From Amoebidium appalachense (taxonomy: Eukaryota; Protista; Ichthyosporea), in assembly GCA_963693365.1 (NCBI GenBank), contig CAVNZM010000010.1:6945794-7009793 (forward strand): a stretch of 64,000 nt of DNA, in the 5' to 3' direction. Positions within the stretch are counted from its first letter, which is position 1; every line of letters begins with the position of its first letter. The translations under genes were made by a program, and so were the position numbers. A model generated the notes under the pieces. It did no database searches. It saw nothing but the letters and a program-made list of their open reading frames with translations, and had not been told where the DNA came from. Below, in pieces: positions 26,127 through 35,288 of the stretch.

Positions 26127-29100
26127 GTTGTGGCACAGGACCAGTGGGCTGTGGTGAGGCAGCAGTCGACGAGGGCGGTTTCACCCTGCTGTTGTCATTG
26201 TGGGTAGTACTGCCGGCTGTGCCTTGGGATTGTTGTGTGGCCCGGGTAGTGAACTGGGGTTGTTTCTCCTCGTCCACGGGTTCCTCCTCAGATTCTGTTT
26301 CGGTGAATAGTCAGACAAAGACGAAAATACAAAATATTTGCCTTATCCTACACGTATGTGCTTTATCATACACTAAACTAACGAATTCTGTCAAACCCGG
26401 CAAAGAGAATTACACTGGAACATGGATGCTTGACTGCCAGGTCCATCAGATTCTATAATCAAGGCATGACATGTGGCAAAAGGGTGGTGGCGTGACATTC
26501 AGGGGTTGCATTGGGTGCATCTGCATGTGGGGTTGCTTACTACATTCCTCTTTAGATGTTTTATATGTGATTGTGATCGTTTTTTGTTTTGTGTGTGTGT
26601 GTGTGTGTGTGTGTGTGTGTGTGTGTGTGTGTGTGTGTGTGTGTGTGTGTTTTATTTTTTTTTGTTGTTGTTTGTTATGTTATGTTTTTTTTTTTTTTTT
26701 GGTGTGTGTGTTTGGGGGGGGGGGGGGGGGGGGGGGGGGGGGGGGGTTGTACCGAGCGTCTCGTCATATTTGCGAAGCGTGATGTCGGAGGCCAAGTTTC
26801 GGTTGCCATGGGTCAGGTCCGAATTAATTTTGCCTCCTTTTCTGTCTGCATATTTATAGGCCCGGTAGACTGCGTAATCAAACAACGACTTGTCCGAGTC
26901 AATGTACACACACGACCGTTGTTCCCTGATTGCAGCTTCCGTTACGGAGCCTGTACCTCCGAGCATATCAAACACGACGTCACCGTGGTTGGAAAACTCC
27001 CGTATTAGATAACGCATCGCCGAGATAGGCTTGACCGTACTTGTAATATACTTATCCGCCCCTTTGTCTTTGGGCCGAATGGGACTCTCGGTCAAAACCC
27101 AAGGGATATTTGGGAATTTGACTTCCTCCGTGAGCCGTACCCCTGGTCTTTTCCACAGACAGGCAACCAGCACACCATAAAAGATATGGTCGCTGCGGTT
27201 GTTCCTTCCAAAACGAGCCAACTGGCTGATTCTCGTTGTGTACCCCGCCGCAGTGGCTGCTTCATCAACAAAGAGGGCTTGCCTGCATGAGAATTCTATT
27301 GTCAGCAGACATAAATATATATTTGTACGAAGTTATGCCCACAGCCATAGCTACACAGCTACGTGTATATATCGTTTTAAATGGGAAGTGTGTGTAGATA
27401 ATTTACGTACAGCCTTTCATAGCAAGGGGAATGGACAGAAATGAAAGTGATGGACAAATTACTCTTTAAGTCTCGGTCGTCGGTTCATGTCATCTGCTGT
27501 AACATTGTAGTTTTAACCAGGATTATTATTGTGTGTGTGTGTGTGTGTGTGTGTGTGTGTGTGTGTGTGTGTGTGTGTGTGTGTGTGTGTGTGTGTGTGT
27601 GTGTGTGTGTGTGTGTGTGTGTGTGTGTGTGTGTGTGTTGTGTGGTGTGTGTGTGTGGCTCTATATGTTGGGCTACGTACCGCCAGCTGCAGATGACGAG
27701 TGTCCAGTGGAATTCGTTGTCTGGCTGCAGTTTGGCAACCCCGCGTGTCCACTCGAAAAGCTTGGACACGTCGTCCTTGGTCCATGCCGTGTCCCAATGC
27801 TCGCTGGTTTCACCGGTTGGGATGTCAGCAATGAATAGCTTCATTGTCTGGAGATCTTCATCCTGCTGGATCTGTAGCTGAACGAAACTGGCCATCTCCG
27901 TAGGTGGATATTCCCGGTAGTCGCCGTTGAGCAGGGCATAGTTGCCTGCGTGGCCGGCAATCACTAACGCATGATCGCCGTCTCCCGTGGGAAGTGGAGA
28001 ACCCCCCGGCTCCTCGCCGCTCGATTGTGGGGTGTCCTTGGCGGGTGTTTGGTCATGGCCGTCTGGGGTTCCATTATTCGTAGGTGCTGTAACCTTTTTG
28101 GGAGTGGGAAGAGGGCTGGTCTCCTTCCTTTTTGCCCAGAGGTTCTTCAATTTCCATGCAATGTTGGGATCCAGTTTCACACCGGATTGTGTGTTCTTGA
28201 TGTCTGTGAAAGGGAATGACATGTGAATGTCGATCTCATCCTATCATTTCAGTATGTGTATCCATAGGTGTGCGTGCATGGGGTGGAGGTCGGAAGAGGA
28301 GCCAACACAGTGACCCATTCAATGTAAACAAGTATCTTCGTAGTGACCTGTTATTTGGTTAACTGTTAGGGCAAAGGGTTCACTATGCCGTGTTATGTGG
28401 ACAGAGGGTGGGTAGATATATGTGTATAGTCGTCCCGATGGGTTGTGTGTGTGTCTATGTGGGTGGGATTGGGGGGGGGGGGGGGGGGGGGGGGGGGGGG
28501 GGGGGGATGGGTTGTGTGTGTGCCTATGTGTGCCTATGTGTGCCTACGTGGGAGGGATGGGGGGGGGGGGGGATGGGGGGATGGGGGGATGGGGGGGGGG
28601 GGGGGGGGGGTGGGTTGTGTGTGCCTATGTGTGCCTACGTGGGAGGGAATGGGGGGGGGGGGGGGGGGGTTGTTAAATGCACCTCTCATATCCTGGTAGG
28701 TAGGAAGGATGAGTTTAGTCGTCCCGATGGGGAGTGTGTGCGCCTATGTGGGAGGGGTTTTTTTTTTTTTTTTTTTTTTTTTTGGGGGGGGGGGGGGGGG
28801 GGGGGGGGGGGGGGGGGGGGGGGGCGGTTTAAATGCACCTTTTATATCCTGGTAGGTAGGAATCTTCGTCGCCTCATGGATGAGGATCTTGTCCTCCGGG
28901 ATGTTATAATTATCCAGAACTTTTTTGTACTCGTTCGGCTCAAGGCCCAAATGAGAACAGATGGCAGCCTTGATCTGAAAGAGTCGTATCAGTAAGCAGC
29001 ATACGACTGGGTTGGGTTTGAGTAAGCATAGTGATGGGGATCGAGTACATGTGAGGAAGGATAACAGGTGCGGTCCACCAGGGATTTTTTTTTTTTTTTT

Positions 29101-35100: not shown

Positions 35101-35288
35101 ATGTCGACACTGCTTGTTGGAAAGACTGTGTTCTGAACAGCTAGCGTGTGCGTTAAAATGTGCTCGTGCATTTGGAATGCGACCGCCTTTTGTTTGGTGA
35201 GTGTCGGACCCAAAAGGTGATCCCGCAATAAGATCACGAGGTTTGCTTGTGTCATATGCATGAACAACCGCGCGCGCGGGTCACGCAA
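26127..35288 (-). CDS. multi-exon fusion protein: PhyH-like 2OG-Fe(II) dioxygenase + low-complexity linker/NLS + ParB/Srx-like domain + beta-class N6/N4 DNA methyltransferase (>1200 aa)
   Basis: Exons ~35288-34959, 34709(or 34773)-34143, 33865-33677, 33260-33192, 32808-32740, 32409-32212, 31901-31806, 31267-30956, 30638-30426, 30295-30128, 29706-29461, 28974-28839, 28203-27681, 27282-26753, 26294-26127; GT-AG with matching phases. Motifs PQVCHWD...DLVLMRATQAHGG...HIRIF; ETIDGNHRRIA; LFIADIPTG...WD; KPISAMRYLIREFSNHGDVVFDMLGGTGSVTEAAIREQRSCVYID. True start and stop uncertain. Confidence 0.75.
26753..28203 (-). CDS. N6-adenine/N4-cytosine DNA methyltransferase domain (two exons)
   Basis: Motif IV-like DIPTG precedes motif X/I KP...GDVVFDMLGGTGS...AA...R (permuted beta order, PF01555-like). 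Confidence 0.85.
29281..29430. repeat. (GA)n microsatellite; representative of many intronic (CA)n, (GA)n, (TA)n, (CCCT)n and poly-G/C tracts
   Basis: Direct reading; others at 15337-15423, 20802-20899, 27531-27637, 37816-37865, 51383-51508, 54167-54458, 57088-57326. Confidence 0.98.
34143..34709 (-). CDS. 2OG-Fe(II) dioxygenase domain exon (PhyH-like double-stranded beta-helix)
   Basis: HxD (HWD), distal His (QAHGG) and downstream Arg (HIRIF) with typical spacing. Confidence 0.75.

Follow-up and report, generated by a model that had tools for sequence, protein, structure and literature searches.

The closest described counterparts of the gene studied here are the Plavaka accessory genes PAG2 and PAG3 of the red alga Bostrychia moritziana (bioRxiv 10.1101/2025.02.11.637652). 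As described in the available part of that report, a PF01555 DNA methylase, a ParB-like domain and a PhyH-like 2OG oxygenase accompany the Plavaka transposase, inverted-repeat arrays lie beside the ParB gene and a self-modification role is proposed. TET+ fungal DNA transposons, including PlavakaB, carry a 2OG-Fe(II) dioxygenase as cargo, with a proposed escape from methylation silencing (PMC12730594), in a text where 'ParB' and 'fused' do not occur. Among amino-methyltransferases (MTases), association with ParB is known from the eukaryotic 'chlorophyte-type Dam', and the chlorophyte/chytrid fusion combines a Group-2 MTase with a ParB-type HTH; the available parts of the two papers concerned (PMC4738411, PMC7544214) describe no fusion of an amino-MTase to an oxygenase. 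In Amoebidium itself, Plavaka giant repeats are intron-poor, rich in tyrosine recombinases and hypermethylated, and the host silences them by 5mC (PMC11244446). 'Dioxygenase' and '4mC' do not appear in the main text of that paper as available, nor do ParB, 2OG or N6_N4_Mtase in two of its supplements.

The locus reported here lies in a 64-kb stretch of Amoebidium appalachense DNA, analysed as a whole (hereafter the window, to which all positions refer), and brings an MTase, a ParB-like and a 2OG domain, the latter two on weaker evidence, to no more than 15 kb from a Plavaka transposase. It resembles the red-algal set in its domain types, in its neighbouring inverted repeats and in the self-modification role that we propose. 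However, the red-algal domains are spread over two genes (PAG2, MTase and SET; PAG3, ParB then 2OG), whereas a single gene of an ichthyosporean here carries 2OG, ParB and MTase in that order, its oxygenase is an optional exon and its MTase motif IV is eroded. Unlike in PAG2, no SET domain was found in Pfam scans of protein P0001 or of 11 exons. The original prediction knew of no protein with these three domains; the set as such is already in print on the red-algal elements, but not as one chain, and no description of a single 2OG-ParB-PF01555 chain was found in the full-text literature, in which few subscription papers were covered.

Results

Gene model and expression

A recount bore out the predicted backbone of 14 exons on the minus strand, running from 34709-34143 down to 26294-26127: they sum to exactly 3484 nt, all introns between them are GT-AG and the joined frame contains no stop. 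The motifs HWD, H, R, GRKRK, KKRPRK and IDGNHR and those of the MTase also lie where they had been placed. With random phases, all 14 chosen frames would be open by chance with a probability of 3e-6, a figure that overstates the case because the exons were picked by eye. Ten of the 13 junctions of this model were seen, either as letters in public read contigs or in a protein that derives from transcripts and bears the name Amoebidium parasiticum. Contigs contain the joints e2-3, e3-4, e6-7, e8-9, e9-10, e10-11 and e11-12; protein P0152, identical to the exons of the window, also gives those from e10 to e15, and the joints of exons 12-15 come from it and not from reads. For e7-8 there are 8-letter loose ends only, e5-6 is supported by length only, and e4-5 was not seen in contigs or transcript-derived proteins. 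As no run is recorded as RNA, X13, X14 and X9 were taken as such from exon-only cover or spliced joints; X13 and X14 display exon-only cover and CT..AC joints, which are absent from the DNA runs X1, X3 and X5. The gene is real, spliced and expressed.

Its extent differs from the 26127-35288 originally proposed (Table 1). The gene runs on beyond 26127 to a stop at 24477-24475, and the ATG at 35102 is a more likely start than a site near 35288 because exon 1 cover in the spliced runs begins near 35047-35090 (X13 has no cover at 35064-35392). A 60-nt intron inside exon 11 was rejected, since these inner 60 nt are retained in contigs. For the main form, a separate gene starting at the exon 3 acceptor, where an in-frame ATG lies, was rejected too, because that form splices exon 1 to exon 3.

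Table 1. Features of the locus (positions in the window; exons numbered along the minus strand).
Feature	Position	Strand	Basis or remark
13-bp palindrome, further copy	35446..35458	.	1 mismatch; ~340 bp upstream of start codon
Exon 1, coding part	34959..35102	-	48 aa, likely start ATG 35102; spliced contigs from ~35090; donor 34958 joined to exon 3
Exon 2, cassette, predicted 2OG-Fe(II) dioxygenase HxD...H...R	34143..34773	-	X13 contig; originally proposed acceptor 34709
Indel site in exon 2	34685..34688	-	4 letters in window; absent in X1, X3, X5, X13, X15; X9 has window + 3 letters
Exon 3, low-complexity basic linker	33677..33865	-	e1-e3, e2-e3, e3-e4 joints
Exon 4, linker, 69 nt	33192..33260	-	start matches loose end at 33676
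Exon 5, linker, 69 nt, like exon 4	32740..32808	-	self-match; two contigs have 69 letters ahead of exon 6
Exon 6, NLS-like GRKRK and KKRPRK	32212..32409	-	contigs, frame; putative NLS role from motifs
Exon 7	31806..31901	-	X14 contig joins it to exon 6
Exon 8, likely N-terminal part of ParB-like domain	30956..31267	-	joined to exon 9 in X13, X14
Exon 9, ParB/Srx-like motif IDGNHR	30426..30638	-	Atlas language-model matches
Exon 10, predicted helical region	30128..30295	-	contigs, structure model, P0152
Exon 11, predicted helical region	29461..29706	-	contigs, P0152
Exon 12	28839..28974	-	contigs, P0152
Exon 13, linker and N-terminal half of beta-class MTase, motif IV DIPT	27681..28203	-	alignment, P0152
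Exon 14, MTase motif I region DMLGGTG	26753..27282	-	Pfam PF01555; Foldseek to M1.HpyAVI, CcrM
Exon 15, low-complexity tail	26127..26294	-	contigs, P0152; also joined straight to exon 1 in X13, X9
Optional tail exon	25423..25616	-	versus P0151; several small gaps in window
Last coding exon with stop	24475..24605	-	P0152 = window exons 10-15 + this exon
12-bp palindrome core, three exact copies	23766..23987	.	111 and 99 bp apart; between gene and transposase
13-bp interrupted palindrome	23679..23691	.	upstream of transposase; more copies at 35446, 43453, 43528, 43602
Plavaka transposase, multi-exon	19363..23233	-	Pfam PF18759, E 8.7e-21 and 1.7e-10

Skipping and alleles of the dioxygenase exon

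The dominant transcript joins exon 1 straight to exon 3, skipping the dioxygenase exon 2, and reads 1063 aa to the stop. Contig depths, a poor measure of isoform share, are 451.3 for the skip versus 35.5 for inclusion in X13, 28.3 for the skip in X14, where no contig contains exon 2, and 67.3 for the skip in X9, whose exon 2 contig retains intron 1. A retrocopy is an unlikely origin of the skip joint, which is absent from the DNA runs X1, X3 and X5. The 34143>33865 junction, originally proposed as a check, is present in one contig only, a 660-nt sequence from X13 (34776-34142 plus 33864-33836) whose short side of 29 letters falls below the 31-letter bar of the tool. The predicted three-domain chain can be formed, in that this contig joins exons 2 and 3 and the read allele is in frame throughout (open for 1229 aa, through to exon 15), but it is a minor isoform, and neither the exon 1-exon 2 joint nor a full-length molecule with exon 2 was seen in the run contigs.

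Since the exon 2 contig starts at 34776, it points to an acceptor at 34773 and not at 34709. From 34773, exon 2 of the window allele is 631 nt long and frameshifted, with a stop after 81 aa, whereas in five of the six runs covering the indel site it has 4 letters fewer, that is 627 nt, and is in frame. This exon has phase 0 at both ends, is free of stops and retains HxD, H and R, and its donor bears the GT plus poly-C signature common to 9 of the 13 other introns. These features argue against the idea that exon 2 is a relic in decay or a gene fragment captured on its own, included by splicing noise in a gene where only the ParB-MTase protein matters. Such an origin, which we consider unlikely, would nevertheless fit the low inclusion, the three alleles at one site (that of X9 shifting the frame from 34773), the retained intron 1 and the unseen joint with exon 1, as well as the protein records: a word-indexed protein search found no public protein with exon 2, and the three EukProt proteins all begin in exon 10.

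Domain assignments

In the inclusion isoform HWD stands at 155, H at 222 and R at 233, a spacing that we take to be typical of the 2OG-Fe(II) dioxygenase superfamily. Atlas features of exon 2 gave 0.96 for an unnamed match, 0.94 for 2OG-Fe(II) oxygenase, 0.93 for PhyH and 0.92 for 2OG-FeII_Oxy_3, the closest look-alikes being unnamed or PhyH-like oxygenases. Exon 2 hit no family in Pfam, PHROGs or NCBIfam; in Pfam this held at E up to 1, so neither TET/JBP nor AlkB was matched, HMMER filters being able to drop weak matches. Custom PhyH and 2OG-FeII_Oxy_3 profiles (30 loci each) scored it no better than 500 shuffles. No homologue emerged from word-indexed searches among proteins of 332-2000 aa, with 118 candidates, or of 99-315 aa, with 14, from 161 and 67 pattern matches in metagenome and genome contigs, respectively, or from a PDB sequence search. 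An AlphaFold model from the single sequence reached a pLDDT of 37.6, and a fold search on so poor a model gave a best Z of 4.0. Several matches were rejected: a viral one (L001, E 2e-4, 35 aa) not within a matching ORF, a phage one (H1, E 4) inside a helicase, and the better of those in 2 of 301 bacterial genomes (E ~0.003), apparently DnaQ-like and judged to be chance. Motifs and language-model matches, with no profile above its cut-off, lead us to predict a dioxygenase in exon 2.

The ParB-like assignment similarly comes from the IDGNHR motif of exon 9 and its Atlas matches (DUF6551, 0.94; ParB_N, 0.88; the ten best named matches in one family or clan) and not from profiles. Searched on its own, exon 9 gave E 0.0027 and 16.8 bits with the NCBIfam DGQHR model, versus a cut-off of 450, and no match to Pfam ParB; exon 8 matched no family in Pfam, PHROGs or NCBIfam.

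The MTase fold is solid and CcrM-like, and it is the one predicted fold with a profile above cut-off: exon 14 matches PF01555 with E 3.5e-9 and 37.4 bits (curated cut-off 26.7), over profile positions 143-219 only. The motifs follow the order IV - TRD - I, with the motif IV region at 301-340 and motif I at 462-468 of P0001, and the best Foldseek matches of a structure model that drew on an MTase alignment were M1.HpyAVI, CcrM and M.BceJIV (E about 1e-8 to 1e-7), all beta-class amino-MTases. Motif IV before motif I and the fold are common to CcrM, M1.HpyAVI, M.RsrI and rotifer N4CMT as described in the available parts of PMC4738411 and PMC7544214; by the same sources, the chlorophyte/chytrid fusion differs from the beta-class MTase found here behind a ParB/Srx-type motif. 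Unlike in those enzymes, motif IV reads DIPT in both the window and P0001, with no match to (D/N/S)-P-P-(Y/F/W), the consensus whose aromatic residue stacks on the base (PMC7544214, available part). Its fourth residue is Y or F in all 64 relatives with residues there, 85 of the 149 aligned being gapped. Because motif IV lacks the aromatic residue, the domain is more likely to bind DNA or SAM, or to act weakly or on another substrate, than to write 6mA/4mC.

Against this background, the proposal that one active enzyme writes 6mA/4mC and also oxidises or removes a base mark appears very improbable. The gene retains the SAM-binding motif I, the MTase fold and those residues of the oxygenase that would bind metal, and an in-frame fusion is possible, its exon 2-3 joint having been seen once; the lost aromatic residue, the lack of a TET/JBP or AlkB profile match and the minor status of the fusion weaken the proposal, and the data lend no support to one chain acting as both writer and eraser.

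A search for relatives with the same architecture found none in proteins, metagenomes or genomes. A profile of exon 14 with 13 divergent MTase matches recovered only P0001 from the 7993 long candidates scored and matched 33 viral loci, and a search of metagenomes with P0012 gave no match.

Transposon setting

The predicted link to transposons held: a Plavaka transposase lies directly downstream, 1.24 kb from the gene on the same strand. An internally deleted second copy of the gene was deduced from a loose end at 34374 in the DNA runs X3 and X5, whose letters match intron 14, from a greater depth above 34374 and from the direct joint of exon 1 to exon 15, which all fit. The 13-bp palindrome has 5 matches in the window versus 0.04 expected, for a pattern picked after being seen; the palindromes could instead be sites of host factors. 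As in the Amoebidium giant repeats (PMC11244446, available part), whose genus is that of the named protein record, a Plavaka transposase flanks the gene cluster. The gene is likely cargo of a Plavaka element.

Against the cargo reading, the transposase is broken at 19362 by an LTR-flanked insertion (TSD TTCT), and the 64-kb window yielded neither terminal inverted repeats nor a 2-3 bp target-site duplication around the gene and transposase together. Both would suit a host chromatin gene of mobile origin, domesticated and by chance beside a dead transposase, as would its strong expression cover and its many introns (at least 16 exons, unlike the intron-poor giant repeats). Nonetheless, the second copy and the palindrome common to the upstream region of the transposase point to a mobile unit, and no orthologue was found in protein searches; domestication is quite improbable in our view.

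Discussion

The reading towards which we lean is that of an expressed Plavaka-adjacent gene, likely cargo, whose main form combines a ParB-like region with a beta-class MTase fold and to which a minority of transcripts add a dioxygenase exon in frame. A transposon toolkit that is already known is arranged here in a new way, with one gene likely uniting the three types of tool that red-algal transposons spread over two genes. The basic motifs suggest that the protein would enter the nucleus, where the ParB-like and helical regions may bind the palindromes upstream of the gene and of the transposase. It would act there on the chromatin of the element itself and resist silencing by 5mC, the MTase-fold domain binding DNA or SAM, or acting weakly or on another substrate, and the optional oxygenase possibly adding an oxidative step on a substrate.

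A bolder and distinctly unlikely extension is an epigenetic switch set by splicing, in which the default ParB-MTase-fold protein would clamp the palindromes of the element and the 627-nt exon would arm it with a dioxygenase that installs or removes a DNA or chromatin mark at these sites. The anti-silencing toolkit common with the red-algal Plavaka elements would then have been compressed to a single chain in a relative of animals. To our knowledge, few transposon genes act on their own silencing, and most of these still await testing.

The fungal PlavakaB TET+ elements (PMC12730594, available part) also unite a 2OG-Fe(II) dioxygenase with Plavaka, although exon 2 has no Tet_JBP match. The surprise is reduced, as this set of domains has already been published, the fused form is a minor one and the methylase is possibly inactive. 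The presence of the MTase/ParB/2OG set of red algae beside an ichthyosporean Plavaka transposase nevertheless suggests its recurrence across distant eukaryotes. One expressed gene with two isoforms and candidate binding sites, in a cultured host with mapped 5mC and 6mA, makes the anti-silencing idea directly testable.

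Results

The minus-strand chain of 14 exons proposed in the original prediction (34709-34143 to 26294-26127) was recovered as described, since it totals 3484 nt, all its introns are GT-AG and the joined frame contains no stop. A single frame is open in 10 of the 14 exons and two in the other four, and the probability of an open chain under random phase is 3e-6 for these exons, which were picked by eye. Used as a protein query, exon 14 retrieved a 100% identical protein of 783 aa labelled EukProt Amoebidium parasiticum, with other isoforms of 826 and 632 aa, the latter corresponding to exons 10-15 plus the last exon (24605-24475). 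All three begin at a methionine within exon 10, without the ParB motif and without exon 2. Within 23000-27000, no exact 6-residue match was found to residues 663-783 of P0151, a transcript-derived EukProt protein of this gene; the assembly therefore lacks or garbles further tail exons (24606-25420).

Transcript structure was read from public sequencing runs, none of which is annotated as RNA; X13 and X14 are one sample. Their cover is nearly exons only, with CT..AC joints that also occur in X9 and are absent from the DNA runs X1, X3 and X5. Contigs join exons 8-9-10-11, 6-7, 3-4 and 11-12, and an X14 contig extends 1357 letters past exon 11, the exact length of exons 12-15. At the 5' end, the dominant joint runs from exon 1 (34959) straight to exon 3 (33865) and leaves out the predicted dioxygenase exon; its depth is 451.3 in X13, 28.3 in X14 and 67.3 in X9. 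The predicted 34143>33865 splice from exon 2 to exon 3 does exist, in one X13 contig of 660 nt (depth 35.5; 34776-34142 then 33864-33836) whose short side of 29 letters lies below the 31-letter bridge threshold. Exon 2 inclusion amounts to ~7% of skip plus inclusion forms in X13, a rough value as contig depth measures isoform share poorly. No exon 2 contig was found in X14, and that of X9 keeps intron 1 and stops at the exon 2 donor. The exon 1-exon 2 junction was not seen in the run contigs; the X13 exon 2 contig begins at a CAG common to the exon 1 end and the exon 2 acceptor, which would fit a branch there. No single molecule covering both exon 2 and the methyltransferase (MTase) was seen in the runs. 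Separately, an X13 contig joins exon 5 (32808) to at least 255 letters absent from 29450-35800, which would belong to a paralogue or to a further exon upstream.

The X13 contig implies an exon 2 acceptor at 34773; use of the originally predicted acceptor, 34709, was not seen, and it is in frame solely with the window and X9 alleles. Read from 34773, the window sequence meets a stop after 81 aa. Four letters at 34685 are missing in five of the six runs covering the site (X1, X3, X5, X13, X15), and this shorter allele makes exon 2 a 627-nt phase-0 cassette in a chain whose frame stays open as far as exon 15 (1229 aa). X9 has three letters more than the window there, by eye an inverted copy of the flank that resembles an excision footprint. 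Because no run covering the site carries the window's allele and the window has small gaps versus P0151 at 25616-25423, an assembly error is plausible. We regard decay of exon 2 into a relic as an unlikely explanation, albeit the strongest of the alternatives.

The MTase call was upheld by exon 14, which exceeds the Pfam PF01555 cut-off. The model of P0152, the 632-aa EukProt protein, has an MTase core with pLDDT mostly 80-95 and structural matches to M1.HpyAVI, CcrM and M.BceJIV, which are not independent as the model was built from an MTase alignment. Aligned motif IV reads DIPT. Its last residue is Y or F in 64/64 relatives with residues there (149 aligned), and the published consensus is (D/N/S)PP(Y/F/W), in which stacking against the target base is the role of the final residue (PMC7544214), so that MTase activity is doubtful. 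The non-catalytic subunits MTA9 and METTL14 are listed with eroded motifs (PMC7544214). Exon 9 carries the predicted IDGNHR, with neighbours DUF6551 (0.94) and ParB_N (0.88) in Atlas, a language-model-based protein neighbour search; NCBIfam adds a weak DGQHR match. Exon 2 holds the predicted HxD, H and R, spaced 67 and 11 residues, and its Atlas neighbours are 2OG-Fe(II) and PhyH-like clusters (0.92-0.96); no profile matched it in Pfam, PHROGs, NCBIfam or custom profiles, and structure prediction gave no usable model. An oxygenase fold is likely. A true writer-eraser enzyme, as first proposed, would combine this fold with an active MTase in one chain; given DIPT at motif IV, it is the explanation we favour least and hold to be very improbable.

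Divergent unnamed MTase fragments on short contigs (P0003, P0008, P0010, P0012, P0014, P0031, P0040, P0084, P0103) have a common motif I, D-L/M-L-A/G-G-L/S-G, and are possibly exons of related eukaryotic elements.

A Plavaka transposase (Pfam) begins 1.24 kb beyond the gene's stop on the same strand; an insertion bounded by LTRs and flanked by a TTCT duplication splits it. The DNA runs X3 and X5 contain a contig that departs exon 2 at 34374 and, as matched by eye, resumes within intron 14 around 26480; depth above 34374 is ~2 to 3 times that below, and an exon 1-exon 15 joint is present in X13 and X9. Together these fit a complete copy of the gene alongside one or more copies with internal deletions. 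Translation across the exon 1-exon 15 joint would run out of frame and give a peptide of 85 aa. Internally deleted copies are usual for DNA transposons. A domesticated gene seems to us quite unlikely. No terminal repeats around both gene and transposase were found within the window.

The stretch separating the gene from the transposase contains a 12-bp palindrome in three exact copies; only exactness and clustering count, because three matches at two mismatches were reached in 27/100 shuffles. A second palindrome occurs five times against 0.04 expected (pattern chosen after the fact), at sites that include positions upstream of the transposase and of the gene.

Features of the gene and its surroundings
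Feature	Position	Observation
Exon 1	34959-35102	minus strand
Exon 2	34143-34773	minus strand
Last coding exon	24475-24605	minus strand
End of exon 12	28651-28706; 28806-28862	partly duplicated within following intron
RVT_1 retrotransposon fragment	2248-4437	
LTR-bounded element	4771-12886	copia-type polyprotein; AGCC 4-bp target duplication
LTR-bounded element	15543-19362	breaks transposase; TTCT 4-bp target duplication; LTRs related to those of 4771-12886
41-nt inverted match	23437-23476; 44181-44221	90%, palindromic core; spans this gene and a plus-strand gene, transposase outside; possible termini of a 20.8-kb element, or else an upstream motif in common
Duplicated block	35690-36670	upstream of gene; ~570-600 bp period, shorter repeats inside
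Multi-exon gene	39399-41600	plus strand, divergent from gene; two exons tested, no family match
Tandem units	43439-43615	three, 74-75 bp apart, each with palindrome of 23679 and 35446
JmjC domain exon	45849-46895	Pfam E 3.2e-14; ~10 kb upstream of gene
C2H2 zinc-finger exon	58167-58613	
42-bp tandem array	61237-61704	

Discussion

In the literature searched, no paper was found to describe a single chain carrying all three domains. In Bostrychia Plavaka elements, PAG2 combines PF01555 with SET and PAG3 a ParB-like domain with a 2OG oxygenase, both PAG3 assignments being weak HHpred calls; inverted-repeat arrays adjoin PAG3 and self-modification has been proposed (bioRxiv 10.1101/2025.02.11.637652). 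By analogy, our gene may work like this red-algal set, from which its architecture differs. TET/JBP genes are carried by fungal Plavaka elements (PMC12730594) and ParB-linked MTases have been reviewed (PMC4738411); the accessible text of a 2026 preprint on retrotransposon DAMs mentions neither ParB, Plavaka nor dioxygenase. In Amoebidium, Plavaka giant repeats are reported to be silenced by 5mC and KDM4-like JmjC-only genes to occur in viral insertions (PMC11244446), and 6mA is reported at gene starts (PMC12695648).

With moderate confidence, we favour the view that the gene is Plavaka cargo. Its default isoform, a ParB-like protein with an MTase fold and without the oxygenase, would enter the nucleus, bind the element's own palindromes as putative sites and there act against silencing, while the optional exon would add a predicted oxygenase.
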